Made by a program: the position numbers and the translations under genes
Part shown: in pieces, positions 17,390 through 56,550 of the stretch
Layout of the letters: each line of letters begins with the position of its first letter
How positions within the stretch are numbered: position 1 is the first letter of the stretch
Notes under the pieces: model-generated
Seen by the model: only the letters and a program-made list of their open reading frames with translations
Database searches by the model: none
Told to the model about the DNA's origin: nothing
Assembly (NCBI GenBank): GCA_016748015.1
Contig: JAAOMT010000639.1
Location: 1 to 64,000, forward strand
Direction of reading: 5' to 3'
Origin: Geosiphon pyriformis uo1
Lineage: Eukaryota > Fungi > Glomeromycota
DNA length: 64,000 bases

Positions 17390-17650
17390 GTGTTTGAAAT
17401 GGAGTTTGAATTTATTGTTGACAGAGTTTGAATCATTGTTGTTATTAATGGAGTTTGAATTGTTGTTGTTATTAACAGAGTTTGAATTATCGTTGTCATT
17501 AGCAGAGTTTGAATCATTGTTGTCATTAGTGGAGTTTGAATTGTTGTTGTCATCAGCAGAGTTTGAATCATTGCTGTTATTAGTGGTGATTGAATTATTG
17601 CTGTCATCAGCAGAGTTTGAATCAGGATTAAGTTCCGATTCCAATTCCCA
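17390..17650 (-). repeat. ~27-bp minisatellite encoding Asn/Asp/Ser-rich DSNSADDNN repeats
   Basis: gagtttgaat(c/t)attgttgt.. units; ORF 17387..17692. Confidence 0.8.
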
Positions 17651-17819
17651 TTTGTTTTTGCTGATTGGCTCTTTTTCGAATATATGATGCATGGGAGTGG
17701 ATTGTAACTATGTTTCAATATTCTAACTCAGGACTGTTAGGTGGGTTTTTCTGATTTATTAGTACTGTAGAAATTAGGTAAGTTTTTTTGTATGATAGCA
17801 GTGTTTGGAATTTATCAGA

Positions 17820-18680
17820 CTTTGAATGTTCAGGTTTTTGAATAATTCCCAGAGTTTGAATTGCTAGAGATTTAATGAGTTTTATTGACAGTAAGTTTTT
17901 TTGTACAATAGCAGGGTTGGAATTATCGGGTTTTGAATATTTGGGCTTTTTAATGATTGGATCTTGAATAATCAGAGTTTTAACAAGTTTTAATGAGTTT
18001 ATCAAAGATAAGTTTCGAATGTTCGGGGTTTTAATGATCAAGTCGGAGTTTTAATTTAACAAGTTTTAACAAGTTTATCAATGGTAATTTTTGAATGTTC
18101 GGGGTTTTTAATAATCGGGTTTTGAATAAACAGAGTTTTAATTTAACGAGTTTTTAACGAATTTATCAATAGTAATTTTTGAATGTTCGGGGTTTTAATG
18201 ATTGGGTCTTGAATAATCAGAGTTTTAATTTAACAAGTTTTTTAATGAATTTATCAAAGATAAGTTTCGAATGTTCAGGGTTTTAATAATCAGATTTTGA
18301 ATAAACAGAGCTTTAATTTAACAAGTTTTTAATAAATTTATCAATGGTAATTTTCGAATGTTTGGAGTTTTAATGATTGAGTTTTGAATAATCAGAGTTT
18401 TAATTTTAACAAGTTTTTAATGAATTTATCAATGGTAAGTTTCGAATGTTTGGGGTTTTAATGATTGGGTTTTGAATAATCAGAGTTTTAATTTAACGAG
18501 TTTTAATGAATTTTTCAATGGTAATTTTCGAATGTTCGGGGTTTTAATGATCAGGTCTTGAATAATCAGAGTTTTAATTTTAATGAGTTTTTAACAAATT
18601 TATCAATGATATGTTTTGAATAGTCAGAGTTTTAACAATTGGGTCTTGAATAATCAGAGTTTTAATTTAACAAGTTTTTT
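17820..18680. repeat. Tandem array, ~87-88 bp unit, ~8 copies plus 2 degenerate longer copies
   Basis: gaatgttcggggttttaatgat... recurs at about 18017, 18093, 18181, 18269, 18356, 18444, 18530, 18618. Confidence 0.9.
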
Positions 18681-24600: not shown

Positions 24601-26400
24601 CAAGCAACTAAAAACCTTTATACTGCTAGTGCTATTACTCAATATGTTTTGAATTTCCAAAGCCTTAACTCTATTAGCAATTAACCAAGCACTAAGTAAT
24701 AAGTCAGTCCTAGAGAAATCACCAGATTGAAGAAACTTAACCATTTTGGCAATCAGCAGTTCCAGTTTAAAAAACTTAGAAAATTGTTTGTTAAAAGAAC
24801 AGTTGATATCACAAAATTAAAGTCTAGAAAAAATATCATCAGCCAAATTCACTATCACTTTCTCCAGCAAATTCCACATAGTATTAAGATCTCTACCAGC
24901 ATTCATAAATGAGAACTTACTGATTACAGAAAAAAACTTGACAAAAATACACTCTTTAAAACAAGCCTATTTGGGAACATTTGCACCAGCAATTTTAAAC
25001 TTCCAATAATCACTGTTAGCTTATTTGTGCAAATCATTCAAATGAAAATCCAAAAGTTCACCCAGATCAACTGACATTATGACCACTTTGTGATCAGTAT
25101 TAAAAAAATCAGAAGCAGAAGCAACCTTATAATTAGCAATCACTAATAATAAACACTTACTGACAAAAATGTAGTCAATAACTTTTTTGACCTTTCTTGA
25201 ATTGCTCCATATAGAAGCCTTGGCCAAATGATAATTTCCAAATGAATTAACCAAATCCAGATCCAAACAAAATTGAAAGTTTGCATTTTTTTTAGATTTA
25301 TTTTTATTAAAATTCTCATTTAAGACCACAAAAGTACTAATATTAACTACTTTTGCTATAAAGAAGTTAACCTCAACCACCTGACCAAACCTAGTTTCAG
25401 TAGAGACACTGTTACGGGATGGTTTTCTTGTTATATTTAATTGCTGATATCCCGCTTTAATTGCAATCAGTCTTTCGTGAGTTCCTTAATTCTATTTGTG
25501 TGATAATGTCACTGTTACACTGAAGGCTTTCTTTTTACTGTTGTGATGTAAGTTATTCTTTAATTCTTGATTGTTGTGTGTGTTTATGTACTCCTTCTCA
25601 GAGGCTGAACTGAAATCTACTCACTGTCTGGGGTCTTCTCTGAGGCTATCCTTGCAATTGCCTGATGTGTTTCTCTAATCTAGAAACACAGAATGTTAAT
25701 GGTCTTTANNNNNNNNNNNNNNNNNNNNNNNNNNNNNNNNNNNNNNNNNNNNNNNNNNNNNNNNNNNNNNNNNNNNNNNNNNNNNNNNNNNNNNNNNNNN
25801 NNNNNNNNNNNNNNNNNNNNNNNNNNNNNNNNNNNNNNNNNNNNNNNNNNNNNNNNNNNNNNNNNNNNNNNNNNNNNNNNNNNNNNNNNNNNNNNNNNNN
25901 NNNNNNNNNNNNNNNNNNNNNNNNNNNNNNNNNNNNNNNNNNNNNNNNNNNNNNNNNNNNNGGTTGTGATAGTTCCGTTTTAAATATTCTTTTTCATTTC
26001 TTTTTGATTTTTAAAGATTTCTTGGGATATTTAATTTGAAAGTATGATTTAAAGTGGAGTTTGTTGGATAAAATTAGATCTGTTGCTTGATAAGTTATGA
26101 TTTTTATTACTTGATTTTTTTTTATTTCCCAATATTAAAACTACTGTATATATACATGTTTGTAGTTCTATGAGAAAATACTTTCTTTTTGATATTTCAA
26201 CCTGGTGTTTGCTGCTATCACCAGTTGGTGTTGGCTGCTATTATGAACTGGTGCTTGCCACTATCGCGAGATGGTGTTTGCTACTATGTTAATCATTACC
26301 TTTCTAAGATTATTACTGTGCTATATTATGATTGAATAGTTTGTATTATTTTTATGATTCTTTTTTCTAAATTCTTAAACCGTAACATTATCCCCTCTTT

Positions 26401-26894
26401 TCAAGATTGAGCTCCGTCGAAATCGAAGTTAATTTCTTCATTAAATTCTAAGTTACTATAGTGGTTTAATACTGTGTTATTAATTTGTTGTTGTAATTCT
26501 TGAAATTGCGAGTTGGTAAGTCGTCCAATACTGTTGGTTGTTATTATGTTCATGGTTGGGTCCAATAATAATTTGTAACAGTTTTCAAATGCTTTGAAAA
26601 TTCTGTAAACTGTTTTTGAATGGAATGTAGTGTTGGTTTTTCCAATGAAAGGTTCTAATAGTTGGATAGTTGTTTTGTCAAACACTCTAGTTAAGTCTTT
26701 TGAGTATAATGTTTGTATGTTCAAGTGCTTTCCTAGTTGATAATAACAGTAATTAATTGGGAATTTCGTTTTCAAGTTGCTAAATGTGTCTGGTGTTAAT
26801 TCACTTATTTCTATTTCTTCCATTATTAATGTATTGCCCAATGCTATCTCTAATTTTTCAATAACTTTGCTAATAAATTTGTTGTTATATTTGG
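26401..26894 (-). CDS. Gypsy-1 ORF3, unknown function (5' part in N gap)
   Basis: ~160 open codons ending DFDGAQS* directly at the PPT; homologous segment in Gypsy-3 (53859-54484). Confidence 0.7.
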
Positions 26895-27160
26895 NNNNNN
26901 NNNNNNNNNNNNNNNNNNNNNNNNNNNNNNNNNNNNNNNNNNNNNNNNNNNNNNNNNNNNNNNNNNNNNNNNNNNNNNNNNNNNNNNNNNNNNNNNNNNN
27001 NNNNNNNNNNNNNNNNNNNNNNNNNNNNNNNNNNNNNNNNNNNNNNNNNNNNNNNNNNNNNNNNNNNNNNNNNNNNNNNNNNNNNNNNNNNNNNNNNNNN
27101 NNNNNNNNNNNNNNNNNNNNNNNNNNNNNNNNNNNNNNNNNNNNNNNNNNNNNNNNNNNT

Positions 27161-28339
27161 TCCAAGTATTTCGTGAATATAAAATGGTCCATCCCACTTG
27201 TGATCAAATTTTCCACTCCACTGTTTTTCCATTTTTGTACGATGCAACAATACTTTATCTCCAATTTTGTAGCTAATTATATTATCTGGTAACTGGTTAT
27301 TATGTCTCACTTTTTGTTGTTCTTGTGATTGTTCAATATTTTGTGCTGCTTTTCTTCTTTTGTTTTCTAAAGTTCCCATTAATTTGTATGTTCTTCTAAG
27401 TAGTGTTTCCTGGAATGTTGCTTCCGTGATAGTGTCACTTGGATAAGTTGGGATAGTAAGTTCAATGGGTAATGTGGCTTTTCTTCCATAAACTAGTTCA
27501 AATGGTGTAAATTGTGTAGTATCTTGTTTTACTGTTCTATATGCTAATAGTACTGCTGGTATGAACAAATCCCATTCTTTTTCATGTTCGTTACTAATTT
27601 TCGCCAGTGATTCACATAATGTGCAATTAAATCTTTCAACTAATCCATTTGTTTGAGGGTGGTATGGTGATGACAGTGGTCGCTTGATTCCAAATTTTTG
27701 GCTAAGTTCTTTTAAGGTGCTGTTTACAAAGTGTGTGCCTTGATCTGATAGCAATTCTTGTGGACATCCATGTCGGCAAATTAAGTCTTCATGTATGAAT
27801 TGAGCTACGGAAATAGCATCAGCTGTTTTAATAGCTCTAGCTTCTGGCCATTTGATGAGATAGTTCATGGCTACTGCAATATAACGGTTGTTTCTTGTTG
27901 TTATTGGTAAGGGTCCAACTAAATCAATTCCGATTCTGTCAAATGGCTGTCCAACTTTTATTGGTCTTAATAATTCCATTGTTTTTGCTCCTCCTCTTCG
28001 TTGGCATGGGTCACAATTTTTTATGTATTGGATTATGTCTGAACTCATTTTTGGCCAATAGTAATGGCTAGTTGCATGTTGGATGGTTGCTGTTTTTCCA
28101 AAGTGGCCTGAATGAATATCTGAGTGCATGTTAAATAAGATAGTTTCTTTTTCATTCGTGGTTATAACTCTTAATGGATTATCTGGATTTTGTCGATTCC
28201 GGTAATAAAGTATGTGATTTTGGATGAAATAGTGTTTTGCTAATTTTTGGAGCTTAATTAGCTCTTTTACTGGCATTTCTTCGTCTATTTGTAGTGTTTC
28301 CAAGTATTGGCTGAGGTTTTTGTAAAGGTGGTTGTTCAT
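27161..28339 (-). CDS. Gypsy-1 integrase, separate ORF (3' end lost in N gap)
   Basis: Own ATG at 28339; HSDIHSGH..CDPCQ, IGIDLVGP, SDQGTHF, NGLVER, WDGPFYI; no stop before the gap. Confidence 0.9.
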
Positions 28340-28368
28340 TGTTGTTGTGGCAGGTGGGTTGGTGATTT

Positions 28369-31300
28369 TTATGTGTGTTTCATTCTTGACAAACAGTCGG
28401 CATTAGCATTTTTGGTACCTTCTTTGTATTTGATAATATAATCATATGGTGCTAACGTTTGTGACCATCTGGCGTATTTTTCTTTTAGTGCTTTCTTGTT
28501 ATTTAACCAGACCAGACCTCTATGATCTGTCGTAATCTCAAAGAGTTGGTACCGTAAATATGTGTCAAAGTGAACACAACTCCAGACTACTGCTAAGTAT
28601 TCAAGTTCATGTGTTGCATAGTTTTGTTCCTGTCTCTTATACACATCTCATTTGTATCATCCAAGTAGACAACAACGGATTGCCACAGGATTCCAGAGTA
28701 AATTATGTCCATTAGTCTTTGGAATGTCGCGGGAGTGTTTGTTAATCCAAATGGCATTACATTGAACTCATAATTGCCATTTTGTGTTGTGAATGCTGTT
28801 TTATGCCTGTCCTTTGGGTCCATTTCCACTTGCCAGTACCTACTGGTCAAGTCCAGTGTAGAAAACCATTTTGCTCCTCCAAAAACNNNNNNNNNNNNNN
28901 NNNNNNCTAAGGTACTCAAAAGCTTTTTGTTGTGCTTCAGTCCATTCAAACTTCACATTTTTAGATAGTAGGTAATTAAGGGGTTTGGCGATGTTTGAAA
29001 AGGTTTCTACAAAGTGGCGGTAGTAAGATGCAAGTCCTAAAAAGCTTCTAACTTCTGAAATGTTTCGAGGTACTGGAAAATTTTTCACTTTGTCTATTTT
29101 TGATGGATCTGGTTTTATTCCATCTTTTCCAACTATGTGTCCTAAAAATGCTAGCTCATTTTTCCCAAAGAAACATTTTTCTAGATTTAGTTTAAGTCCA
29201 GCGTGTCTCAATCTCTCAAAAACTTGTTGTAAATGTTGAAGATGATCTGTGAATTTTGACGAGAAAACATTTGTATCATTCAAGTAGACAACAACGGATT
29301 GCCACAGGATTCCAGAGTAAATTATGTCCATTAGTCTTTGGAATGTCGCGGGAGTGTTTGTTAATCCAAATGGCATTACATTGAACTCATAATTGCCATT
29401 TTGTGTTGTGAATGCTGTTTTATGCCTGTCCTTTGGGTCCATTTCCACTTGCCAGTACCCACTGGTCAAGTCCAGTGTAGAAAACCATTTTGCTCCTCCA
29501 AAAACGNNNNNNNNNNNNNNNNNNNNGCTTTTAATTGTCGCTGTTGGTCAGGATCCATTGTTCCAATGTTTAATTTGGCCAATTCTTCTGGTGTAAATTG
29601 ATAGCATTCTACTGGTTGTTGCCAATTTATTGAAGTGAGTTCACAGTAGAGGGCAATTTCTGAGAAATTTAGAATTTCTTGTGGTGTTGACGTGTTTTTT
29701 AGCTCCGTTCCGAGGTATCCAATGATGGTATCTTCCGGAATGTAGACGGGTTCTTCTGTGGTGTTTGCGATAGGAATTTTTATCCATTGAGCTTTATCAG
29801 CTGGAATAAAAAGGTTAGTAAGTCCTATGAGAAACTGTTGGCAAGTTTCTGGGTAGGGCTCAAATATTAGGTCTTTTTCTTTAATTGTCCTTTTTATTCT
29901 TATTTCTGATTTTCCATATGGTAGGAGCGTGATGGACCACTTATTTTTAATTACTTCGCCTTTTTCCTCTATTGTTTTAGCGAAATTCGCTTCAATTCCT
30001 TTTTCTGTCAATCCGAAACCAAAAGTTCCTCTTGTTGTTTGTGACAATTCCTCACGATTTTTCACTGGCATGAATTTCCCAATTTTTACCAATGGTAGGA
30101 AAATTGCTTGTGCAATCTTTTCCTTAGATTCAATGGTATAAGGCTTTTCTGAATTGTTCTGTAGCAAAACCATCAAATTTCCAGTGTATCCAGAGTGAAT
30201 TACTCCTCCTTGAATGCTTATTCCTTTTTTCGTGAGGCTTGATCACGACGCCATTTGAACCATTATTCCTGGCAGAATTTCAACCGCTATTTTTAGGTCG
30301 ATTTTGGTGATGTTCCTGGGTGGTAACGTTGTGGATTGGTCTTCTGGATAACGTAGATCAAATCCGGCGTCGGTTGGATGGGCTCTTTCGGGTATTATTC
30401 CTAAGTGCCCGTTGTCGAAGTATTGGATGTCGGTCACCTGTTCTATGTCAGTATAGGCTACAAATTTTTCTGACTCGGGACCGTCAGGTGAGTCTTGTTG
30501 ATTTATTGATTGATTTTGAGACTGCTGATTCTCAATTTCCATTTTTCTTTCTAAGTCCCTTTCGTCTTGACACTCTTCACAGCACTGATTTTGGCACGGG
30601 ATGAGACAGTTTTCGCAGAGGTAAGTGTTGATTTGGGCAAGGTATTGTTCTTGCTCTTGTCAAGTGGGGCATAGTTGTTGGTAGTAGTCCTGGAATTCGT
30701 CCACTGGGTTGAACATGTTGTAGCTGGTGACTTTGTCAGCTACTTCGGCTGACTCTTTCCAACGTCGTATTTCTTCGGCGGTTCCTCCTCTTACTTTGGC
30801 TTGTGTGGTGTTGTACAACTCGTCCTTGTCATGTGGGTAGTGCTGTAGTCTTTTTAACGCTCTGTTGAACGCTGCTTTAAACGGCGTTCCTCCTCTTACC
30901 CAGTCACAGATAAGGATCGTGTATTGGCAAGTTGCGTCACACGTTCCTCCTCTGCCTGGTAAGTCGTTCCAGTCGCACCCTCTTGGTAACGGTTCTCCAC
31001 AAGCGAAGCACGGTTCCTCGTCCCATTTTCCGTGTCTTTCTGGGTAACCGTATTTTTCTTTGTTACAACGGTTACAATAGTAGTGGGTGGAGTTTCTTGG
31101 GTCTTCGTCCAGTGCGCTGCATGCAGTCATAGACGAGAGTTTTTTCTTGTAAACCGAGCATTCTAGCTTTGGTCTGTGTCGCTGGTGGTTTCTTCGTGAA
31201 CTTACCTGGTTCCATTCGGATCTTTCTTCGCTGGTCCACGTTGATATGGCTGGTAGTCCTGTTCTTTGGTCATCAGCCCAAGAGAGCTGATAGGTTTCGA

Positions 31301-33878
31301 TGGCTGGTAGTGCTGGATTTTCTTCAAATTCAAAGGTAGGTCTTTGGTTGGTGCTGGGTTTTTGGAAGTGGCCACAGGTGGCTGGAATTTTGGCCTGGTG
31401 GCCATTATAATTGATCAGAAGCTCTTGGGTGGTCCAGTCTAGGGTGGCGTTGGCTTTTGTTAGCCAGTCATTCCCTACTAACGCTTGATATTGTGTAGCG
31501 TCCATTACTAATACTTTTGTAGATATTACTATGCCGTTAATTTCAAAAGGGAATGAGTCGATTTCACCATAAGGCAGCTTTGTACTTCCATTGGCTGTTA
31601 TGATTTGGGACATCGCGGCACGATCAACTTTGAAACCCAGTTGGTTTACTAGTTGAAGCGTTACGATGCTTTCAGCAGATCCGCTGTCTAAGATAAGTTT
31701 GATTGGGGTATTGTTTACAGTGGCTTCCATATACATAGCAGTGATTGGGCGTTTTTCGTCCAATGCTGCTCCACTGAACATAGCCTCGTTTTCCTCTAAT
31801 TCAAAAGGAAAAATAGCTGCGAGGCTGCTATCTTTGGTGGCAACTGCTGGTGGTATTGTCTGGCTCAATTTGAAGGAATTCTTGGTTCTGTTTATGTTTC
31901 TACCATCATTGTTTCCGATGATCAGGTTTTCTGGTATATTAAGGTAAGTTTGTTGATAATTTTGGTAGTTTAGATTGGTTTGCTGATTGGTTCCGGCGCA
32001 GTTTGGATTCCTCTGGACCAACGCGTTCTGGTTCCACATGGGCTAATTTCGGGCCTCGGGACGCCAATTCGGGTTGGCTATCATGGGCTGTTGCTGGTAA
32101 GCTCCTTGATTTTAATACATGGTGGGATATTGGCATGGTATTGGCGTGTACTGGTTTCTGGGCATTTGGGGTGGCGCGTAGTAATTATTTTCGCGTGCTT
32201 CCTGCATCATTCGCGTTCGACATTGACTAATCAAATGTCCTATGCGTTTGCAAAAATGGCAGGCGCGTGTTTCTGTTCTGAATTCCTGGCGCGACGAGCG
32301 ATTATTTCGACTGTCGCTGACTTCCTGGCTGCGTCTTTGGGGTGGTTGGTATGTATTTTTTCTCAGATCCGGGATGAGGTAACTTTCTATTTTCTTAGAG
32401 AGTTCCTCTCCTAATCGCGTTACTCTTTTCTCTAATGTTTCTGTCTTATTTTCCTCCATTACCATGTTAACCATTTGACTATGATTAGCTTCTTTCTCAG
32501 CCGATTCAAGGGCTCTGGCGAGCATAATGGCTTCTGGTAAGGAATTAGGGTGGGCAGGGCGTACTCTTCCTAAAATGCTGCTTTTTAATCCTCTAATAAA
32601 CTGATTTAAAACCTGAGGATCAGTATAGTATCCTTGTTCAATCACTTCAATCTGACGGTAAATTCGATTAAATCGAGCAAGGTATTGGGTGACAGTTTCA
32701 CCGGTATTTTGCTTGATAGTATTGAATTCGTTCTGTAGTTGGATTACGGCATTTGGGTCGCTAAAATACTCCAGGAGTGCATTTTTAAATTCGGCAAAGC
32801 TCGTGGGTTTTGTTTTCAGGCTTTGATACCATGAGTCGGCTGTGCCTTTCAGGAAGAAAGGTAATGTTTGAATTGCTCTTTGGTCGTTCCAGTTATTTGC
32901 CTGGATGGCTTTTTGTGCTTCTCTGAGCCATGTGTGCACGTCCATTTCTTCTTCCTCTCCTGAGAAATCTGTTAGTCTTGTAATGTATGGTGTGGTCATT
33001 TTGTTGCCGTTTTCTGCTGGTGGGTTTATTGGTCTAAGAGGAGGTGGGATGATATTTTCTTGAGTGTTCCTAAAAGTGGCTTCCCTTATATCTGGTTCTT
33101 CCTCTTGCTCACGAGTTTCTTGGTTTCTGGACTGGCTGCTTGTTCTAGTGACTGGTCTTGTGATTGTTTTTTCGCTGGTCTCTTTTTCGGATTCTGATTT
33201 AGACTCCTCTTTACGGTTTTCAAACCCCGTTCTAAATTTTGGCTGAAAAAGAGGGTTTTGGAATAGTGATGAATATTCTCCTGTAATTGGTATGTCTCCC
33301 CAGTTACGTTGTTTAATTTTATCAATATAACTAGGAGTTCTTGGTATTTGTGGAGTTGATGTTGATGATAATGCAGCTCCTAAAGGAATTTGTATCTTAT
33401 TTTCTGATGAAAAATGGTATGATTTATCTTCTGGTGAATAAATACGTTGTTTCTTTATTGATTGAGTGACAGTTTTTTTTGGCGTTTGAGCTGGTGTTTC
33501 TAGTTTTTGCTGGTTACTTTCCTGATTAGTTTTTAAATTTTCTTTGGTTTTGTTGGCGCGTTCCCTAGTGTTTCCTGTGGATATTGGAAAATTTTCATTG
33601 GCATATTGCTCAATTTCTCGATAGATTTTGACAATAGTTGCGGCTATTACTGCTACTTTTTTTGTAGTGTATTGTGATAATTCTCTATACAATCCAAGTT
33701 TTGCATCATGTGGTTCTTCTTCCTTTCCTATATGATAATTTATTCTGGCATTGATATAATAAGTGAGGGCAGATTCTGCTGGACAACACCCTTCTGGTAA
33801 TCTAAGATCACTCTGATTTTGTGTGTAAATAGCATGGCAGAATTCAAGAACAGTAAGATTAGGGGTTTTTGTCGCCAC
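28369..33878 (-). pseudogene. Gypsy-1 gag-pol: Gag (capsid, CCHC), aspartic protease, Cys-rich domain, dUTPase, RT, RNase H
   Basis: ORFs 33878, 32039, 30542 and 30176 are all one frame, separated by single in-frame stops; CHFCKRIGHLISQC, LILDSGS, DAGFDL/GVIHSGYTG/RGTFGFG, VMPFGL..YLDD, ELEYLAVVW..TDHRGL..NADCLSR. RT/RH part has gaps and an artefact. Confidence 0.92.
28630..28648 (+). other. Nextera/Tn5 mosaic-end adapter: assembly artefact
   Basis: Exact CTGTCTCTTATACACATCT at a chimeric RT/RNase H junction beside short N gaps. Confidence 0.97.
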
Positions 33879-33940
33879 TTTTGTCTTTTCCTTTTTAGCA
33901 ATGAATTATTGCTAATTATTATTTCCTTTTTGATTTTCTT

Positions 33941-33960: not shown

Positions 33961-35181
33961 TGTTACGGGATGGTTTACTTGTTTATTTAATTGCTGATAT
34001 CCTGCTTTAATTGCAATCAGTCTTTCGTGAGTTCCTCAATTCTATTTGTGTGATAATGTCACTGTTACACTGAAGGCTTTCTTTTTACTGTTGTGATGTA
34101 AGTTATTCTTTAATTCTTGATTGTTGTGTGTGTTTATGTACTCCTTCTCAGGGGCTGAACTGAAATCTACCCACTGTCTGGGGTCTTCTCTGAGGCTATC
34201 CTTGCAATTGCCTGATGTGTTTCTCTAATCTAGAAACACAAAATGTTAATGGTCTTTAGCACTTTTCTAATTCTCACAATAAAGCTTTTATCAATTAGTA
34301 ACAACGTGAATAATCTTGATCAAGGATTATTCTTCCAAGGGATTCAGTTGATGAATGATAGTTTCATTCAATAAATAATACAAGTAAGTTTCTTAATATT
34401 TTGGGTTGTGATAGTTCCATTTTAAATATTCTTTTTCATTTTTTTTTGATTTTTAAAGGTTTCTTGGGATATTTAATTTGAAAGTATGATTTAAAGTGGG
34501 GTTTGTTGGATAAAATTGGATCTGTTGCTTGATAAGTTATGATTTTTATTACTTGATTTTTTTTTATTTCCCAATATTAAAACTACTGTATATATACATG
34601 TTTGTAGTTCTACGAGAAAATACTTTCTTTTTGATATTTCAACCTGGTGTTTGCTGCTATCACCAGTTGGTGTTGGCTGCTATTGTGAACTGGTGCTTGC
34701 CACTATCGCGAGATGGTGTTTGCTACTATGTTAATCATTACCTTTCTAAGATTATTACTGTGCTATATTATGATTGAATAGTTTGTATTATTTTTATGAT
34801 TCTTTTTGCTAAATTCTTAAACCGTAACAACACCAGCATACAAGCCTAAAACTGTAACTAAAAGCTTGCTTTTGAAAAGAAGCTGAACTAAAATAACACA
34901 ACCAGGCATCTTTTTAATCTTGGAGACATGTTGAACCAAGAAATTGTTCATAATAATTATCACATCAGCACCAAAAAAACCCTTATTCAAACCAGATGTA
35001 AAAATTCATACACCATTAAATTTGTTTATAATTTAAGATCTAATATTAGACTTCAATTTTATTTCAATGATTATTAAAATTATATTACTAGAGTTTATAT
35101 GTCAATACACAACATCTTCTTGCTTAGCTGGCATATTGATACTATAAACATTACACATAATAATCTTTTAGATCAAATTAC

Positions 35182-43000: not shown

Positions 43001-46000
43001 ATGTTTTCAAATCTATTTATATGGCAGAAACTAAAATGATTCAGTAATAATAATAAAAATATTATGTTAGAATGCATGCATATTATTAATGCAAAATTTG
43101 ATCTGAGATATTCAAAAAAATATGTTATAACATTGAAGCCCAATATGTATACATGTATTGACTTAAAAATAGCATTGAAAATCTTAGCAACAACAATGGT
43201 TTAATTAACATTCAGATTTAGTTTAACAAAAAAAGAAATCAGCATTAGAGGAGAAATAATTAATACAGGATATATAAGAAATATTATTGCAATACTACAA
43301 AATAAATCAAAAAATTCATATATAATTGAACCAAATAAAAACATAATACAGACAATATTCTTATCTCTAGTAAAAATAGCTTAGTTAGTTTCAGTAGAAA
43401 AAAAAAAAGTTAGGAATTACAAGAAGAGGAAAAAATGGATTTAGATCTATAAATAGAATAAACATACTAGTCAATATGGCAAAAAAAAAACAATTGATAA
43501 GAGAGAAATTATTTTCATTAATCAATCAGTTTTCATTCCATTATATGACTAGTATATATTAATAATAAAGATAAAAGTAAGAAACCAGTTCCAGATTTTT
43601 GATGCAGAATCAATTATTTGTGAATCAGAAAAAATTAGAATCACCAATTTCTACATACTGGCCAAGAACTGTAAGCACATCAAAATTTCCATCTATAATA
43701 CAACTGAAGACACCATTGAAATACTAAGTGGAACCATCATCAAATACTTAAGCACTGAAGTTAAAAACCAATTACCAAACACCATTCCAGATTTTTTACA
43801 GCTTTGTAAATATGTAGATATCATATTCCAAACAATATATAAACAAAAAAAATGTTATTTGCTCCAACCAGAACAATTAGACCAAATAAACTTGGAAAAC
43901 TTAGACCCACTTCAATGTATGCAGCTCAAAATACTACTCAACAATTTTACCAACATTTTTGCCAGTAAAAATAAATTTGGTAGAACTGATATCATTCAGC
44001 ATTAAATTAAAACTAGAGATGCTATGCCAATTAAACAATAAACATATCAAGTACCACCAACAAGTCATAAAATTATCTGATAAGAAATTAACAAAATATT
44101 AAACAATGAATTAATCAATCATTAATGAGTCTATGATTATTATCAGTAGAAAAAAATGGAAAAATCTACTTTTGCATGAATTACAAAAAACTCAACAGTG
44201 TTACTTATAGAGATAACTATTTAACTCTATGAATTCAAAAATTATTCAATGTATTTGAAAAAAAAAAATGGTTTTCAATATTAGATCTAGACAGTAGTTA
44301 TTAGTAAGTAGCCATAAACTCAGCCAACAAAGAGAAAACAGTGTTTACAACCAGGAAAGAGAACTTTAAATTTAACATTATGCCATTTGACTTAATGAAT
44401 ACTCCAGCCACTTTCCAATGACTAATGAAAATTGTCTATACTAGATTATTATGAAAGTTAGTAATAGTCTATTTAAATGATATCAATGTGTTTTTCAAAA
44501 CATTTGATAACTATCTTCATTATTTGCAACAAGTATTTGAGAGACTAAGAAAAGCTGGATTGAAATTGAATGCAACCAAATGCTTTTTTGGCAAAACAGA
44601 ACTAAAATTCTTGGAACATATTATAAGCAAAAATAACATTAAGATGGATCCAGACAAGATTGAAATAGTCAAAAATTTTTCAATACCAACCAACTTGACA
44701 AAACTAAGAGCATTTTTGGAATTTGGTTGGATATTACTATTATTTTATCCAGAACTTTTCCAAATTAGTCCAACTACTTCATTAGTTTTAATCCAAGAAT
44801 GTTAAATATAAATAGACAAAAACTCAACAAAAAACTTTCAACATCTTGAGAAAAAACTTATTCAAGTCTTAGTACTAATCTATTCAGATCACAGCAAGCT
44901 ATTTATCAATATTACTGACATATCAGGTCAAACATTAAGAGCTGTATTGTTTTAAAAAAAGCCAGATGGAAGAAAACACTCAGTAGCATATAACAGCTGA
45001 AGCTTGAGCCCAACTGAAAAAAACTATAGAACTTCAATATTAGAACATTTGGCTATCTATTGGACTGTTATTGAATAGAAGAAATATTTAAGTCAAAAAT
45101 TTGATGTATACACTAATCACAAAAAATTAACATCAATTCAGAAACAAAAATTTGCAGACAACTGTTATACAAGATAGAAAATAGAACTATTACTATTTAA
45201 TTATACAGTACATTATAAAAAGAGGAAAAAAAATGAAAATACTAATAATTTGTTATAAATAAAACAAATTTAAGAACATTTTAACCCAAAAATATAACAA
45301 AAAATAAACACACAAAAATATTAACAACTCCAACATTATATTAATACTTAACTGTTCAAATAGAAATTATCTCAAAAGGAACAAAACAACATAACAATCA
45401 AAATATTTTATTATCTATCAAGATATATTATACCAGAAAAACAGAAAATATTCAGATCAGCCATTTAGAGTCATCACAGAATCAGAGAAAAAAACAATAC
45501 TATTCAACATGCACTCAGATCAAACAACAAAATATTTTTATAAAAAAGCAACCATAGAAAGAATTAGAAAAAAATATTATTGGCCATCTATGTATTCAAA
45601 TATTATCCAATATGTTTAAAATTGTGATGTTTGTCAGAGAAGAAAAGAAACAAAATCCAGTAAACCACTGTTACCAGTAGAATTTAGCTATTAATTAGCA
45701 TGAAATTACCCTCATAATTTTTATTATTAATTAGCATATATTATTATTATTTCAATTATCACTTATTATTTAATCAAATTATTAAATATCATTATTCAAT
45801 CAATAATCCGATTTGTACTCTAGAAATTAAGATGATCAGATTACACAATATTCTAAACCATTTAACATAGTCAAAATTCGTCGAAATTAATGAAAATTGG
45901 CCGAAATAATTAATAGTTCAGTGAAATAACTTGTAGTTCACCGAAATGTATCTTTAGTTTACCCAAATTGTAGCAAAGAAAAAAAGTGCAAGTTCAAAGA

Positions 46001-46640
46001 CTAGTACTACAACAAGTTGTATAAAAGAAAAGCTTCTCTCTTCAAGAAAATATATCTTCTCATAGTATCTTATTATAGTACTTTACTTTAGATATCTTAA
46101 TTAAAACAAATTACCTTTTACACATTCAAATAAAAATTAAATATTCGAAAACCAAATCCTTAAAATTATTACACTTGAAATTTTCTCAACACAACTAACG
46201 TTTTGAAATTGATTAGCTACCAATTTCAGTAATCTGTTAGTAACTCTAGACCCGAATAGAAAACATTTCTCTTGATAAAATCCCATTTCTTTTACATTTC
46301 TTTAATTTTTCTTTTTTTTTCTTATCATAATCATTAGGGTAGCCTACAGACAAGATTTCTGTAGAAGAGTTGACTTTTACAGCAAAATAACTACACATCT
46401 TTAGTAAGCTTCCAGATGAGCAATTCCTGGGAAAGAGTTGACATTTACTACAATGTAACTACATAAAATAACTGGCATAGAATTGGCCATTCTACTTATA
46501 AGCCCAGCAGTTCAAATTATAAGAGATAATTTGAAAATAAATTCAGTTATTGGAGGTCCAACTACTTTCTAAGAACATAAATTCACAGCAAATCAACATT
46601 AACAACACTCAAGAAAAGAGACCAAAAACCTCTGGTAACA

Positions 46641-46658
46641 TTTGGTGCTCTCTCACGG
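46641..46658 (+). promoter_or_regulatory. Primer-binding site of Gypsy-3
   Basis: tt TGGTGCTCTCTCACGG immediately after the 5' LTR. Confidence 0.8.
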
Positions 46659-46685
46659 AAATAACACAGCAATAACAACTTCAAA

Positions 46686-49600
46686 ATGGTGATTACATTA
46701 GATACAACAACTCTAGAGTATTATCAGTCAATTTACAGTCACTGTAAGCAAAGATTCAACATTTCAGATGGAATTGAAGTTGTCAAGAAATCAGTTTGAA
46801 AACTGCATCAACAATTATTTTTTTGGAAACTACAACATTTCAGAAGTTAAAAACAATCTCTACAATAATTTAATGCACTATTCACAATTAAAAACAGAAG
46901 ACCTAAACAGTGAAACACTTTTTCAAAAACTTAATTTTAACATTATTGAGTATTGTAAAGAAAAATACCCAGTACAGTCCAAATACTCTCTTAACTTTAA
47001 ATCAGAACCAGAAACAAGCAACAAAGACAAACAAAAAGTGAAACAACACTCAAGAACCACTCCAAACACTCCAATATTACCTAAGACAATTGCCAAACAC
47101 TTGCAAACATCTGAACAAGAAACCAGTGTCAAATTACCACTTTCTATTACACCATTTCTAATTTCACTTGCTCAACCACAAACACCAAATTTACCACTTA
47201 ACTGTTTCTCCAAACCAGAAGATTTTCAGTCACCTAGAAATTCTATTCAACAGCAGGAACCAATATCAACCAACACTACAAATTTCTAAAAACTGAATGA
47301 TATTAATATTATTGATTACTTACAAGAAAACAAAAGTAATTATTCAGAAAACTTGGAAAGTGAAAAAACTGAATCAAAACAAGAAGAAGAAATGGCAACT
47401 GTTTATATTGCAAAAATTTCAGAATTCACTGGCAAAGACAATAATACCACCCCTCAAAAATGGCTTGACAAAATTCAAAAAACAGGAGATGCAAATGGTT
47501 GGAATGCAGCTAGAATGCTCAAAGCAATCCCATACTTTTTCCAAAGAACTGCAGAAAAATGGTTTGAAAATTTGGAAGAACTATTTGAAAACTGGCAAGC
47601 ATTCAAAGATGCTTTTTTACAACAATTTATTAACAACAACACTTCTATTATTCTCTGCAATTGCTTTTACAATATCAAACAAGAAACATCTGAAACTTTT
47701 TCAACGAATTTGACAATTGGAAACCAATGACTACTATTCCAATGCTCAGATTCTGGATCAATTTATAGCAGGATTAAAAGACAAATTGATTAAAAAAGTC
47801 CATCCACATGTACCAGCAGACTTAGCAACTGCCATTAGACATGTTAAGAACTATGAAATGGCAATAAAAGAAGCAAACTACACCAATCTTGTAAACTTAG
47901 CTATTGAAAAAACCAGCTCAGCAGCTGAAGAGAAGATAGACCAACTCACAAAAAAAGTTGAAAACTACTTTACAAACCAACAACAACAGCAGCAACTACA
48001 AAGATATCAACTACCACAATAATACAACCAAAACAACTTTGGATTACCACCCAACAACCAACCTTAAAATTGTTATTATTGTGGAATCTCAGGACATTGG
48101 AAACAAGATTGTAGAAAATTACAAAAAAACCAACAAAACAGAAGTAATCAATGTTACCCTTCATCACAACAATCTTACTACCAATCTCTACCACCAACTT
48201 ATTATTCACCAAGACCACAAAATCAAAACAGTTACTATCAACCAGCTCTACAATCAATTTAGCAACAATATCAGCAATCTTTACCAATTCAGCAATATTA
48301 AACACCACCCACTCAACAATATCAAGTACCAGCCAGAAAATTGGTCCAACAAAACCAATTCACACCACAAAACCGTTTTTTAAAAGACAACAACAGATTT
48401 AACCACAATAATCAACTAGTTCCTCGGAATTCTGTTCAACAAAGACCCACTCAGTTTTATACTCAACCCAGTTATTTAACAATGCAAAAAGAATCAAATT
48501 TTTAACAAACTGCACTTTCTAAAGGTAAAGCTATAGCACCAAAATCAAATCCTTTTAACAATACCATTCTACCAGCTCAAATTGCCCAAAATGCCAACCT
48601 CTCAAATATATTTCCATTCAAATTTAAAGCAAATGAATCACTATTCTTGCTTAGTAATGCAGCAGCTAATAAACAAAAAGCTATTATTGCCATGTACACT
48701 AAAGCTACAGTAGAAGGAAAACCCATCCGATTAATTCTAGACAGTGGATCCACCAAAAGTATTATTATCTACCAATTAATACAACAGCTTTAAAGAACTG
48801 TTGACAGACCAGTCTAAACTGTAATTGTTACAGCTAATGGCATGAAAAAAACCCCAGTAGAAGAAATTAACAACTTCCTATTCACCATTAATAAAATTAT
48901 CATTCCAGTCAAAGTTCTAGTTATGGATGCACCCCAATACCAAGTTCTTGTCAGAAATGATTGGCTTCTCAAAGCCAATGCAAACTTAGACTGGGAAACT
49001 CAGGAACTCAAAATCTTATATTAAGGACAATACACTATAGTACTTGCAACTTGTGATACTTTTAACAAATGGTCAGAAAAAGTCCCAGTGTTCAAATTTG
49101 AGAAAGAGAAGAAAATGCCACTTACTGAAACCTACATGGCTCTTGGATTAACATCCAATTGGGCTGAAAAAACACAACAAGAGATTTTTGAAGAATTAAG
49201 AAGATAGAAGAAAGTTAGATATTTTACACCAGAACCATAAAAAGAAGCACTATACATTCCACTAAAATGCAAAGATTGCAAAAAAAAGCTTTTATCTATG
49301 AGAGCCTGTATTTCTCCAGAAGAGAAATATGAAACTCACACCTGCTATTTCTGCAAAGCATGCCATAGAAAACGATTTGAATTCCCAAAAAGAAGTAAAA
49401 AATAGGACAACACACCTTGTCTTACATGTGGAGATATGCTATCAGAAGAATACAACTGGATTGATGTTGCAATGAGGGGAGGAGTATGTAATCAAACCTG
49501 TCAATATGTTCTATCAATTTCGAAAAAAGTTAGAAGAGAAACACCATTTGATGCAGCATACAACAGTGCTCTTAACAAACTGTATTACTATCCTTATGAT

Positions 49601-52238
49601 GCTGAAATGATTTTTGACTTAGCAATGGCATTAATCAATAGAGCCACCCAAAAAGATGTCTGCCAAATGAAAGAAGCTGAATACATTGAGTATATCATGG
49701 AATTAGCTGGATTTGATTATGAAAATGAAGCAAAAACATACCACCAAATTACAAATTATACATATCCAACCAAAAAAGCTCAAATTCAATAATTAGAGCA
49801 AATGAACATTTAATTATATGAAGAATGTATTATGTCTTGTGATGACCAATGGTGTTTAGAATGCTATGCTCTTAGCATTCCTCTGCCAGATGAGAATGAT
49901 AAAAAAAAATCGAATTTGGAGTATTTGAACTAGTAGAAAAACTACCAACCACACTCATCTATTTTCTTAAAAATCAACCACCTCTATAACTTAAATATTT
50001 CAACAACCATGACCAAGGAATTAGACCAGAAAAAGCACACAAGATTGATGCTGGATATAATCTAAAATACCCAGAAAAAGATACTTTGGTTCTCCAACCA
50101 AAGTTCTTGACAAAAATCAACCTAAAAATCGCTTTTGAAATTCCATCTGGAGCAATAGTTCAAATTGCATCTAAATTATCATTGGCAAGCAAAAAAATCA
50201 ATGTTAGAAGAGGAGTTATAGATGCAGGATATACTGGAGACATTACTATCATGTTGCAGAATAAAACAGACTAATTATTTAAGATTAAACATGCTGAAAA
50301 GATTGCCCAAGCAATTTACCTATTCCTAATCAACATTTCGGGTTTACAATCAGTTAACAACAGAGAACAATTGGGAAAAAATAAAAAAAATACAAGGTTT
50401 TGGTTCAACTGGACGATTTACAGTGCCAGTAAATATAGCTTTCAATACACAGAATAAATCTCATCAGATTCTTCAACTTCCCCAACCAATTACTATTTCA
50501 CTTTTTGGAGAACATCACAAAATCTACACTTGCTCAAAACCCACCACTATCCAACAAATCTGTTTAAAGCATGAAATTTCAATCCCAAACGTTTATATTC
50601 CCAAAGGAATAAAAAAATTTCAAGTTATATTCTACAACCCCAATAATTACCCTATTGTCTTATTAAATAAATTAGAAATTGAAATCATCTACAGCAATAT
50701 TTTTCAAGATAAAAACTCTTAAATTGTTTCTAATTTTATCGAAATTATAAGACATATACTACTTCTAAATCTAAACATCATCCCTACTACTGAAAACTAT
50801 TATCTGTTGGAAGAAAAACTCTCTCAAATCAACATAGGTCTCTTAGAGTCCCAAAAACAAAGACAATTGAAACAATTGATAGCTGAATCTGCAAATATAT
50901 TTGCAAGAGACAACAATGACCTTGGAAAAACTGATATTGTCCAATACTAAATCCACACAGGAGATACTCTACCAAAACAACAACAAGCCTATTAAGTTTT
51001 ACTGCTAGCCACCAATTTATTAGAGAAGAGATCCAAAGAATGCTCAATAACGGATTGATTCAACTATCAAGAAGTCCTTGGGCCTCATCAGTAGTACTTG
51101 TTAAAAAAAAAACGGAAAAATCAGATTCTGTGTAGATTATTATCAGCTCAACAGCATAACAATTGGAAATGCCTACCCATTTCTAAGAATTGATAACATG
51201 CTAGATGTCTTAGGAAAAGCCAAGTTTTTCTCAACTTTAGACTTGAAAAGTGAATACTGGCAAGTCGAAATGGACCCAAAAGATTGATCCAAAACAGCAT
51301 TTACCACTTAAAGAGGAAACTATGAATTTAATATTATGCTTTTTGAACTCTGCAATGCACCAGCAACATTTCAATGACTCATGAATGTTGTATATGAAAA
51401 ACTCTTGTGACAATCAGTAGTTGTCTATCTTAATAACACTAATGTGTACTTACCAAGCTTTGAAGCTCATCTTATTCACCTGCGAGAAGTTTTTCAACAA
51501 TTATAGAAAGCAGGATTAAAGTTAAACATTGAGAAATGTCATTTTGAAAAAACAAGCCTAATCTTTTTTAAACATATTGTTAGTAAAGATGGAATCAAAC
51601 CAAATTTTAGAACAATCAATGCTGTCAAAAACTTTCAAACCCCCAAAAATACCACAGAGCTACAAGAATTTGTAAGATTAGTCTCCTACTATCAAAAATT
51701 CATAAAAGAATTCTCAAAAATTGCCAAACCACTCAATTATCTTATCAACAAAAACGTGCCATACAAATGGACTAAAGAACAACAAAAAACTTTTGAAATC
51801 TTCAAGACAAAATTAACAACAGCTCTAGTTCTTGCTTATCTAGATTTCAATAAACAATTTCAATTAGTCACTGATGCTTCACACATAGCATTTGGTGCCA
51901 TTCTATCACAATTGAATGAAAATGGCCAGGAGCAGGTCATTGTTTATGCTAGTAGAACACTCAAGCCAACAAAACTCAAATATGGCTCAACTGAATTAGA
52001 AGCTGCTGTAGTTATTTGGGCTATTAAACATTTTCAACAATACTTGAAGAATGGAAAAAAATTTGACATAATAATTAACAATATTGGCCTCAAATGGCTC
52101 AATAAAAAGAAAACTGAACAAAGTGCCAAACAGTCTTGATGAAATAACTTCCTAGCAGACTACAAATATATTGTATACCATAAACCAGGAAAACTACATA
52201 CCAATGTTGATAGCCTTTCAAAAATGAGACAAAATTAA
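46686..52238 (+). pseudogene. Gypsy-3 gag-pol (Gag, PR, Cys-rich domain, dUTPase, RT, RNase H)
   Basis: CYYCGISGHWKQDC, LILDSGS, GVIDAGYTG, GFGSTG, SPWASSVVLV, VTDASH..ELEAAVVIW, ends VDSLSKMRQN*. Confidence 0.88.
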
Positions 52239-52293
52239 CACCACCAACAAATTCACTACAACTTACTACTACCAACAAAACAACAAAACAACA

Positions 52294-53660
52294 ATGGATT
52301 CCAAAAATTACAACAATTTTAAAAACTATTTGGAGACTCTTATCATACCAGAAAATTGGTTTCCAAGTAAAAAACATTGATTACAACACCAATCCAAACA
52401 ATATTTCATTCATCACAACAAAACTTATTACAAAAATTGTAGAAATTAAAACCAACCATTCAGATTAGTACAGAAAAACAAAAAAGAAACAATCCTATAC
52501 AACATGTACACAGATTTTTCTTCAGCACACTTAGAAAGAAATGAAACAATTCAAAGAACTCTTGAACATTATTTTTGGCCCTATATGCAAAAAAACATTT
52601 GACAATATATAGAATTTTGTGATAGTTGTCAAAGAAAAGAAAAAACTTGTCTCACAGAATCTTTAAATCCAATCAAAGTTGGACAATCTTTTGACAGAGT
52701 TGGAATTGATTTAGTCGGACCATTACCTATCACAATCCAAGGAAATTGTTATATTGCAGTTACAGTAGATTATCTTACCAAATGGTCTAAAACTAGAGCC
52801 ATATAAAAAGCAGATGCAAAATTAGTAGCAAATTTCATTTATGAAGATATTATTTGTAGACATAGATGCCCAATTGAACTCTTATCAGATTAAGGAACAC
52901 ATTTTGTAAACAACTTAATACAAGAAATTTGTGAACGATTCAATATTAAAAGACTCTTATTATTATCTTATCACTCTTAAACAAATGGATTTGTAGAACA
53001 TTTCAACAAAACATTGTGTGAATCTTTAACCAAAGTCTCAACAGATTTTGAGCAGAAATAAGATATCTTTATTCCATTAGTGTTACTAGCATACAGAACA
53101 CTAAAACAAAATACTATGAAACACACACTATTTGATCTTACTTATGGAAGAACAGCAACATTACCAATTAATTTCACAGTAGAAACATACCCAGTACAAT
53201 CAATCAATAAAGAAAATTTTCAAGAAACACTCTTCTTAGTACATTAGAAGGAAAGAGACACATAGCAGCTACTCATATTGAACACTTTCAAGCCCTACAA
53301 AAAGAAAGACATGACAACAAATTACCATCAGTTACCAACAAATTTAAAGTTGACAATAAAGTTTTCTTACACAGAACTAAGGCTAAAAAACAATAAAATT
53401 GAAAATTTGAACATAAATGGGATGGATCATTTTATATTCACGAAATTTTAGGCAATGGATTATACAAGTTAAGACTTAATGACAAAGTATTAGCAAAAGT
53501 TGCACATAGAGATAGATTGAAATACTATTATTCCAGAAACAATCCTGAATCATTAATTTCACAAATTGGTACATATTCTTCTTTAATTAATCCTAAAGAT
53601 ATTCCTCGAAATTTAGAACCAATAATTATAATAGAACAACAACCAAACTTGAACACTTAA
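52294..53660 (+). pseudogene. Gypsy-3 integrase (separate ORF, decayed)
   Basis: ATG GAT TCC AAA AAT TAC at 52294; CDSCQR, VGIDLVGPLP, WDGSFYIHEILGNG. Confidence 0.85.
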
Positions 53661-53858
53661 TTCAACATAATTTTACAATAATCTTTTAATAATACACAAA
53701 AACAAAAATAGTAAATAATTACAAGAAATATCCAAACCCAAAAACAAATAAAACCCCATATCCAAAAATAATTTTCTTTATTCTCTTTATTAATCAACCA
53801 TTTTTATCATGATTATTTTTGAAATATCCAACAAATATTTCAAAAATTAATATTAGCT

Positions 53859-54484
53859 TTGAAAACATTTCCTGACTTATTCATAACAATTAATGGAAGT
53901 CAAATTAATTACATTCAGAAAGAAACTACAGCTCCAGTAGTAAATAATTCTCAGAATTATTACCTCTATAAAAGAAAAACAAAAAATTACTCTGGAAATC
54001 AATTACCAGAACTTTTGAAGCAAGCACTGAAAAAAAACCTTTTAATTGCCCCTATTGACATTCCACCAAATGCCACAATTCAACAAAAACTTCTACTATT
54101 TTTTAATGAACAGAACAATGAATATACACTTATATATAGATATTTTTGTATTGGAAAACCACTTTATGAATGAAAACTGGAACTTGAAGCAACCAACATC
54201 ACTCCTGAGGCTATACAAAAACAAATTCACAATGAATTCAAAATAGCAGCTGGATCAACAAACACTTACTACAAACTTAGAGCAGCAGTTAGACTCTATA
54301 ATTTATTCAACACTTGTGAAAACGTCCTACAAAATCCAATACTCCATCCAATGAAGATTTAATACATTGGAAAGCTCACAAAACTGAAATTTCAACAATT
54401 TTCAGACCAGATCACTTCAATTATCTTGGACTACTATCTTAATATCACAGATAGTACTTGGACTTTGACGGAGCTCAGTCTTGA
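53859..54484 (+). pseudogene. Gypsy-3 ORF3, unknown function
   Basis: YRYFCIGKPL..AAVRLYNLF..YIGKLTKLKFQQF, then DFDGAQS* (one frameshift) abutting the PPT. Confidence 0.65.
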
Positions 54485-56550
54485 GGAGGAGATTATGTTA
54501 TCAGTAGAATTTAGCTATTAATTAGCATAAAATTATTCTCATAATTTCTATTATTAATTATTATTTCGATTATCACTTATTATTTAATCAAATTATCAAA
54601 TATCATTACTCAATCAATAATCCGATTTGTACTCTAGAAATTAAGATGATCAAATTACACAATACCCTGAACCATTTAAAATAGTCAAAATTCGTCGAAA
54701 TTAATGGAAATTGGCCGAAATAATCAATAGTTCAGTGAAATAACTTGTAGTTCGCTAAAATGTATCTTTAGTTTACCCAAATTGTAGCAAAGAGAAAAAG
54801 TGCAAGTTCAAAGACTAGTACTACAACAAGTTGTATAAAAAAAGAGCTTCTCTCTTCAAGAAAATATATATTCTCATAGTATCTTATCATAGTATCTTAT
54901 TATAGTACTTTACTTTAGATATCTTAATTAAAACAAATTACCTTTTACACATTCAAATAAAAATTAAATATTCGAAAACCAAATCCTTAAAATTATTACA
55001 CTTGAAATTTTCTCAACACAACTAACGTTTTGAAATTGATTAGCTACCAATTTCAGTAATCTGTTAGTGACTCTAGGCCCAAATATAAAACGTTTCTCTT
55101 GATAAAATCACATTTTTTTACATTTTTTTTATTTTTCTTTTCTTTTCTTATCATAATCATTAGGGTAGCCTATAGACAAGATTTCTGTAGAAGAGTTGAC
55201 TTTTACAGCAAAATAACTACACATCTTTAGTAAGCTTCCAGATGAGCAATTCCTGGAAAAGAGTTGATATTTATTACAACGTAACTACATAAAGTAACTG
55301 GCATAGAATTGGCCATTCTACTTATAAGCCCAGCAGTTCAAATTATAAGAGATAATTTGAAGATAAATTCAGTTATTGGAGGTCCAACTACTTTCTAAGA
55401 ATGTGAATTCACAGCAAATCAACATTAACAACACTCAAAAAAAAAGACCAAAAACCTCCAGTAACACCACTAATACCAATTAAAGTGAGACAACCATTTG
55501 ATTGAATTGGAATTGACTTAGTCAGACCATTAACAATAACCAGTAAAAGCAATTAGTATATAGCAATAACTATAAACTATCTTACAAAATGGCCAGAAGC
55601 AAAAACAATTCAAAGAACAGATGCAGAATTTATAGCCAAATTCATCCACCAAAATTTAATTTGTTAATATAGATGTTCAAAAAATTATTATCAGATCAAG
55701 AAACTTATTTTGTAAACAGAACATTAACAAAATTAAGTTAAATATTTGAAATCAAAAAATCATTATTATTACTATATTATTCACAAACAAATGACTTAAT
55801 TAAAAAGCAATAGCAAAAATCAGCCAAAAAAACCAGGACAAATGGAATTTGTTTATATTATTAGTATTATTTGCTTATTAGACAATAAAACAAAATATCA
55901 CACAAACAACACCATTTAAACTTGTTTATAATAAAACAGCAACATTATCAGTTGAGATAAATATCAACACATATTCAATGGAATCAATAACAGAAGCCAA
56001 CTTTTAAAAAACATTGCTAAGAAGAATGTATAAATTAATAGAAATATTGGAAAACAAAAGATAAAAAGCAGCTAATAACATTCAAAGATTACAAAAAAAA
56101 CAAAAAAAATAACATAATAACTAATTACCAGATAAACCAATTGAATTTAAAATTGGAAACAAAGTACTTTTATATTATACCAAAGCAAAAAAACAATGGA
56201 ATGAAAAATTTGACTCTAAATCAGACAAATCATTTCACATTGAAGAAATTCTAAAAAATAAAGCTTATAAACTAAGATAGAACAACAAAATTTTAGCTAA
56301 AACAACACATAAAAATTGACTAAAACTATATTACAATATAACATTATCATCTATCAATAATATTTTACAACTGGGAGTATAAGGAATAGTAGTTAAACCA
56401 AATAAAATTCCATAAGATTTAAAACCAATTATCATCATTAAAGCAAATACATCAAATTGATTTATTATAACAGTATATAAAAAATTAGCAAGCATAACAA
56501 AACAACAAAAAAAGATGAAAATTACTAACAGCATCTATTTACTTACACAA

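Follow-up and report, generated by a model that had tools for sequence, protein, structure and literature searches.

We analyzed a 64,000-nucleotide stretch of DNA from the glomeromycete Geosiphon pyriformis uo1 (contig JAAOMT010000639.1 of assembly GCA_016748015.1, positions 1 to 64,000 of the forward strand; hereafter the window), which is AT-rich, of fungal type and dense with repeats. It holds three Ty3/Gypsy retrotransposons, G1, G2 and G3, in which integrase (INT) is encoded by an open reading frame (ORF) of its own, behind a stop codon at the end of RNase H. G1 lies on the minus strand (34829-25410) and is bounded by long terminal repeats (LTRs) with TG...CA ends and by a 4-bp target-site duplication, GTGT. 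Its 5' LTR (33961..34829, TG...CA ends, 98% identical to the 3' LTR) is followed by a TGG stretch resembling a primer-binding site and by a single gag-protease-dUTPase frame of 1479 codons with four nonsense stops (29466..33905; Pfam Retrotrans_gag, Ty3_capsid, aspartyl protease and dUTPase). Reverse transcriptase (RT) and RNase H come next (28372..29505; Pfam RVT_1 and matches to RT-RNase H profiles), partly duplicated and mis-assembled and ending in NADCLSRMKHT. After the junction (28340..28371), made up of a TAA stop and a 29-nt spacer that is C/A-rich, AUG-free and predicted to be unstructured, lies the stand-alone INT ORF (27161..28339), which is truncated by a gap of Ns. The 3' part of a third ORF, ORF3 (26401..26892), whose 5' end is inside the N gap and which has no Pfam match, ends at the polypurine tract, and the 3' LTR (25410..26387) has an N gap within it (25709-25961).

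G3 is a full element on the plus strand (45669..55466) with LTRs at 45669-46640 and 54496-55466 that are 92.7% identical. It is nested in G2, whose integrase gene it interrupts with a 4-bp target duplication, CCAC. The first part of the G2 INT is at 45374-45682 (plus strand, INT profile positions 26-128) and the second, past the insertion, at 55437..56343 (plus strand, profile positions 113-421). Membership in Ty3/Gypsy is indicated by the two LTRs with TG...CA ends and short target-site duplications in G1 and G3, by the domain order Gag-protease-RT-RNase H-INT in Pfam and profile searches, and by the Ty3-type capsid, RT and integrase (Pfam Ty3_capsid, RVT_1 and Integrase_H2C2). INT lies outside the Pol polyprotein frame in the G1-G3 lineage; its place in that frame is usual for the superfamily but does not delimit it. 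Between protease and dUTPase, G1 (30243-30659, minus strand) and G3 (approximately 49200-49900, plus strand) also have a Cys-rich, zinc-finger-like region that matches nothing in Pfam.

According to the initial annotation of this DNA, a stop closes RNase H in three diverged elements and integrase restarts behind it, and we found this arrangement in G1, in G3 and, in decayed form, in G2. In G1, the TAA at 28371-28369 is followed after 29 nt by the ATG at 28339 and by 393 stop-free INT codons up to the N gap at 27159. In G3 (junction 52236..52296, plus strand), RNase H ends in VDSLSKMRQN before the TAA at 52236-52238, and a G-free spacer of 55 nt leads to the INT ATG at 52294. The degraded RNase H end of G2 (junction 45271..45306, plus strand) is closed by a TAA at 45271-45273, and 30 nt further on a decayed start, ATA at 45304, opens a sequence that reads I-N-T-Q-K-Y-stop-Q-L-Q-H-Y-I, consistent with the N-terminal pattern of the family. 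The three spacer lengths were as proposed, and the frame is indeed not conserved: the offset from RNase H to INT is +2 in G1, +1 in G3 and 0 in G2. The G1 junction itself is contiguous and free of Ns despite a mis-assembly in RT-RNase H about 260 nt upstream, where there is a 258-nt duplicate (28649-28906 and 29268-29525), with 20-N gaps; the 19-mer at 28630-28648 resembles a transposase or library adapter. Because G1, G2 and G3 form a single RT clade (Shimodaira-Hasegawa-like approximate likelihood ratio test, SH-aLRT, 99), they attest one ancestral split and not three.

The split extends well beyond the window. We searched with the G1 INT for homologous proteins of 216-688 amino acids (aa). 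Among the best 120 of 1692 matches, 96 begin with a Met at exactly position 1 of the G1 INT; they are 45-54% identical to it, and their median pairwise identity among themselves is 0.48. Four more of these 120 have the same Met behind an extension of 1-16 residues, and the other 20 begin at a later position. That size range favors short proteins, and a separate search was made for longer INT-bearing ones. Among the best 120 listed there, five are at least 40% identical. NCBI gene models from mycorrhizal fungi account for four of them, and the fifth, P0176, falls outside the main INT clade. Nine close outside loci contain both RNase H and the start of INT (L001, L004, L006, L008, L009, L016, L017, L084 and L088). 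All nine are split, several with intact ORFs on either side of the stop (1479 and 418 aa in L001, 1577 and 418 in L017, 688 and 423 in L006). By the same test, distant loci at about 30% identity (among them L019, L033, L035 and L045-L047) have an open frame from RNase H into INT. In Rhizophagus irregularis, a near-identical family of 42 members (P0090) is annotated as stand-alone INT with the same Met. Fused youngest copies, which the initial annotation had named as the outcome that would overturn its proposal, were thus not what we found, and its tripartite plan (Gag-protease-RT-RNase H, INT, ORF3) is supported by the outside sequences as old and fixed throughout a wide lineage of Gypsy elements of mycorrhizal fungi. 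The spacer varies: at one extreme stop and start overlap by 4 nt, and at the other they are 521 nt apart.

A 43-row clade of the INT tree (SH-aLRT 93) comprised 31 stand-alone proteins, 8 split loci, 3 gene models and one fused element, P0126/P0415. The trees were built without multi-copy chimeric proteins, and the INT tree took in every fourth stand-alone INT and 9 of the 39 rows with INT before RT. In the free RT tree, 11 fused rows were intermixed in a weakly supported group of 33. A one-clade constraint was not rejected by the approximately unbiased (AU) test for INT (p-AU 0.365) and for RT (p-AU 0.923, log likelihood 72 higher, P0126 having been added after the trees were seen). A single origin of the split is therefore possible, yet the split rows are mixed with fused ones in the free RT tree. 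P0126 and P0415 are a truly fused Gag-Pol-INT pair that nests inside the split INT clade and is a candidate for secondary re-fusion. The split is also seen from the Pol side: in a search with an RT-RNase H profile, the top 8 of 189 full domains lacked INT and 6 of these 8 end 2-25 residues past the motif, but that profile was made from split elements, and a protein that ends at a stop looks the same as one that ends with its contig. Taken together, the loci and proteins confirm that the separate INT cistron is real, lineage-wide and part of Ty3/Gypsy. No chromodomain family was listed for the best 120 INT homologues, the C-terminus of the G1 INT being cut by the N gap, and a search of viral contigs returned three distant loci; none of these contigs matched the RNA motif described below exactly.

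Several of the related contigs have features of their own. The Gag ORF of L006 (1-2916) has a long Cys-rich repeat array and a PPPNN/PPPID repeat ahead of the capsid, and gag and pol overlap there in different frames, in contrast to the single frame in G1, L001 and L017. In one sub-lineage, Pol continues for about 315 residues after RNase H in an acidic tail (L001:3494-4438, L084:2-1146 and P0324) that reaches to the stop ahead of INT; this tail contains a Cys/His cluster, and its basic C-terminus is conserved. L084, L085, L086 and L088 are fungal-type retrotransposon contigs within bacterial genome records, one of them a Ca. Glomeribacter assembly; contamination from the host or sample is the most likely explanation.

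The conserved Met appears to be a genuine start. The G1 INT has an N-terminal extension domain, an HHCC motif, a DDE core and the beginning of an SH3-like domain (Pfam Integrase_H2C2 and rve; AlphaFold). In its AlphaFold model (predicted local distance difference test score, pLDDT, 82.9), Met1 opens helix 1 (residues 3-15) of a domain with pLDDT of 90 or more, and the best structural match was the integrase of prototype foamy virus (PFV), with Ty3 integrase also matched (7q5b, E 3e-21). Ty3 integrase has an N-terminal extended domain, according to the available part of 10.1101/2021.07.27.453949. From the model, we infer that the conserved Met is where mature integrase would begin. Position -3 is an A at 16 of 19 INT starts, whereas among internal Met codons this holds for 25 of 82 (p 4e-5, over related rows that are not independent), and INT is under purifying selection (nonsynonymous divergence, pN, of 0.20-0.28 against synonymous divergence, pS, of 0.63-0.74, both uncorrected). 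These sequence features suggest that translation starts at the conserved INT AUG.

The spacers differ in length, composition and structure. Over 11 junctions, the distance from stop to AUG was -4 (an AUGA overlap in L017), 29, 30, 55, 62, 63, 74, 102, 110, 117 and 521 nt, so that the INT AUG lies at most 117 nt from the stop in 10 of them. No AUG occurs in the spacer in 8 of the 11, and frame offsets of 0, +1 and +2 are all represented. The C/A richness emphasized in the initial annotation holds in the window, where C+A is 0.90 in G1, 0.88 in G3 and 0.77 in G2 against about 0.6 on the flanking coding strand, but not as a trait of the lineage, since it is 0.49-0.73 in eight outside spacers. Even in the window, composition alone is weak evidence, because G-free runs of at least 29 nt are frequent on the same strand (8 per 7.5 kb in G1 and 30 per 7.8 kb in G3). 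No RNA structure was predicted for the G1 and G3 spacers.

Seven relatives have a predicted RNA of about 41 nt with three helices, located 0-30 nt before the INT AUG (L001, at 4462-4502, L003, L005, L007, L010, L013 and L085). In the alignment, whose structure was derived from six of the seven sequences, 91.8% of cells are paired and 9 of 14 pairs have two-sided changes, a level reached in 0 of 500 shuffles and above all slid controls; the conservation of U-G and G-U pairs indicates that it is the sense strand that folds. A model built from the six loci matched the held-out L085 with a score of 46.7 bits, and L085 adds more compensatory changes. When nine loci, six of them motif-bearing, were compared with Rfam 15, nothing matched at the motif with E of 5 or less, although very short RNAs can escape detection. 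We regard this strongly covarying RNA as a candidate new RNA element of the sister branch. In L084, which is sister to L001, an unstructured spacer replaces it. The R. irregularis P0090 family may carry the motif, because it is nearest to the motif-bearing L010 (72%). In the window there were no pattern matches, and the sole match of the RNA model, at 13218-13263 on the minus strand (22.5 bits), has no integrase beside it and was taken as chance.

We favor, with a probability of about 0.45, a mechanism in which INT would be translated from the full-length genomic RNA by stop and restart. Ribosomes would terminate after RNase H, scan the short spacer and reinitiate at the INT AUG. The spacer would act as a cis-element, unstructured in G1-G3 and a small three-helix RNA in the sister sub-lineage; INT output would be lower than that of Gag, and free INT, instead of travelling within Gag-Pol, would bind its own RNA or Gag/RT in cis and be carried into particles that way. 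Restart is favored because the AUG is near the stop, overlaps it in one case and is at most junctions the first that a scanning ribosome would reach, and because there are precedents after long ORFs in SART1, CHV1 and HvV190S (as described in the available text of PMC10275272). A fixed frameshift or read-through is ruled out by the variable frames and the conserved Met. Several observations speak against restart. Three spacers contain upstream AUGs, eight in the 521-nt spacer of L009 and one apiece in L008 and L088; stop and start overlap in only 1 of the 11 junctions; and UGGGA, which we take to be the TURBS-like motif (termination upstream ribosome-binding site), was found within 150 nt upstream of 0 of 19 INT starts. 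A G-poor, A-rich, unstructured leader with a strong start context would fit a 5' untranslated region (UTR) equally well. One R. irregularis gene model, P0125, known as a gene model only, is fused through a long insert. A review considers ordinary reinitiation improbable where an intergenic gap follows a long ORF (PMC3894237).

The main rival, which we hold to be possible, is that INT is translated by cap-dependent initiation from a subgenomic mRNA, either transcribed from an internal promoter close to the RNase H end or spliced from the 5' LTR region, with the spacer as its 5' UTR. The strong A at -3, the unstructured G-poor leaders and the tolerance of long spacers such as that of L009 all fit such an mRNA, and foamy virus Pol is made from a spliced mRNA (PMC3705302, available portion). 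Against this reading, there is no AG in the spacers of G1, G3, L004 and L008, an upstream YAG position is not shared over nine junctions, and L004 has none within 150 nt. Nor would a subgenomic mRNA require the AUGA overlap of L017 or the generally short distances. The covarying three-helix RNA just before the AUG, with its held-out match in L085 and the exchange for an unstructured spacer in L084, raises instead internal ribosome entry independent of upstream translation, through a spacer that would be A/C-rich and unstructured in the window but compact and structured in the sister sub-lineage. We consider this unlikely, since the structure is only about 41 nt long, is found neither in the window nor in most loci, was derived from most of the sequences that display it and could equally be a packaging or protein-binding signal. 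Restoration of a fused Pol after transcription, whether a small intron spanning the stop is removed or the stop is recoded, is very improbable. The NCBI gene models P0122 and P0123 do connect RT to INT, and P0126 shows that fusion is structurally feasible, but both models lose the RNase H end and the first helix of INT, and the INT part of P0123 is 93% identical to the stand-alone P0085, which is the pattern expected from an invented intron. Moreover, a frame-restoring GT-AG intron is absent from four of nine junctions and none is common to the other five, and variable frames and a conserved Met in good context argue the same way. As to the stops being decay or assembly noise in dead copies, all three window copies have nonsense changes and G1 is mis-assembled nearby. 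This explanation has a negligible chance and is refuted by the Met1 homologues and the nine outside split loci, several otherwise intact, and the young R. irregularis family has the same split.

Over 94-140 aa, G1 ORF3 shares 96-98% identity with proteins that carry the name Geosiphon pyriformis, which places the G1 family in Glomeromycotina. A homologous ORF follows INT in L001 (5890-6330), L004 and L084, and the last codons of ORF3 extend into the polypurine tract in G1 and G3. The L001 ORF3 model (from seven sequences) is an all-helical domain with pLDDT 86.5. It had no Pfam match, and Foldseek searches of PDB and viral libraries found nothing with E of 0.001 or less; the best fold comparison gave Z 5.2 with a root-mean-square deviation (rmsd) of 3.5 over 80 residues, and Atlas matches were at chance level (130-138 of 256 features). 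A broader proposal, which we find rather doubtful, is that these are tricistronic LTR retroelements in which the C/A spacer and the 41-nt RNA would be interchangeable signals for restart or internal initiation, and in which the RNA region or ORF3 would load free INT without Gag-Pol fusion or release by protease.

Elsewhere in the window we noted a gene with tetratricopeptide repeats (TPR) and a glycosyltransferase family 41 domain, resembling O-GlcNAc transferase (2710-5190, plus strand), and tandem arrays at 17397-17651 (27 nt x 7) and 17979-18684 (88 nt x 8), between two repeats spaced by about 2.6 kb.

The textbook route by which INT of LTR elements is packaged is as part of Gag-Pol. A large, old and still-amplifying fungal lineage that departs from this rule points to a second solution for INT expression and packaging, and it may offer very short natural signals for translation of downstream ORFs in eukaryotes. 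Because LTR elements make up 41% of the genome of Geosiphon pyriformis, where the G1 family occurs (PMC11952901, available text), the architecture touches much mycorrhizal DNA. Annotation is affected as well: pipelines that demand an unbroken Pol will call such elements dead, and gene predictors insert false introns over the junction. The young R. irregularis family makes the separate-INT architecture directly testable.

A separate INT cistron in Ty3/Gypsy is apparently undescribed in print. Searches of the open-access literature found no description of a separately encoded INT in LTR elements. The available parts of PMC6839031, PMC5911963, PMC13524379 and PMC6431247 contain no such case, and papers on transposable elements of mycorrhizal fungi do not discuss the ORF structure of the elements in the portions available. 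Like other Ty3/Gypsy elements (Metaviridae, such as yeast Ty3), those described here have TG...CA LTRs, PBS-like (primer-binding-site-like) and polypurine sites, a 4-bp duplication, the order gag-protease-(dUTPase)-RT-RNase H-INT, and an INT with the N-terminal extension, HHCC, DDE and SH3-like regions; a dUTPase between protease and RT is reported in fungal elements (PMC6431247). Unlike them, they have a separate AUG-initiated INT ORF and then an ORF3 without family or fold match, whereas in fungal surveys the pol polyprotein has INT as its final domain (PMC3248453, available text).

Ginger DNA transposons also have a free-standing Gypsy-type integrase, but the Ginger description (terminal inverted repeats, no RT) sets them apart from the present elements, which have LTRs and RT, with INT between RNase H and the 3' LTR. 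In the Gypsy elements with INT ahead of RT, which we take to be those called Gmr1-like, Pol ends two residues past the same RNase H motif (P0192 and P0207), and the truncated-looking end is therefore a complete RNase H. Their INT is within the polyprotein and upstream of RT, whereas here it is downstream, and the two groups form separate clades in the RT and INT trees. SART1 (a non-LTR element) and the fungal viruses CHV1 and HvV190S share with our elements a downstream enzyme ORF whose own AUG is at or near the upstream stop, as in the AUGA of L017, and RNA structure near the junction matters in them (PMC10275272). Their stops and starts overlap, whereas 10 of the 11 junctions here have spacers of 29-521 nt in an LTR retrotransposon, and the overlapping or adjacent stop and start typical of termination-reinitiation systems is not seen in the window, where spacers are 29-55 nt. 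Foamy viruses make Pol without Gag and package it without Gag fusion, according to the available part of PMC3705302. In both, a replication enzyme is separate from Gag, and PFV integrase is the top structural match to the G1 INT; in foamy viruses the whole of Pol is separated, by splicing, and in the lineage of G1 it is INT alone.

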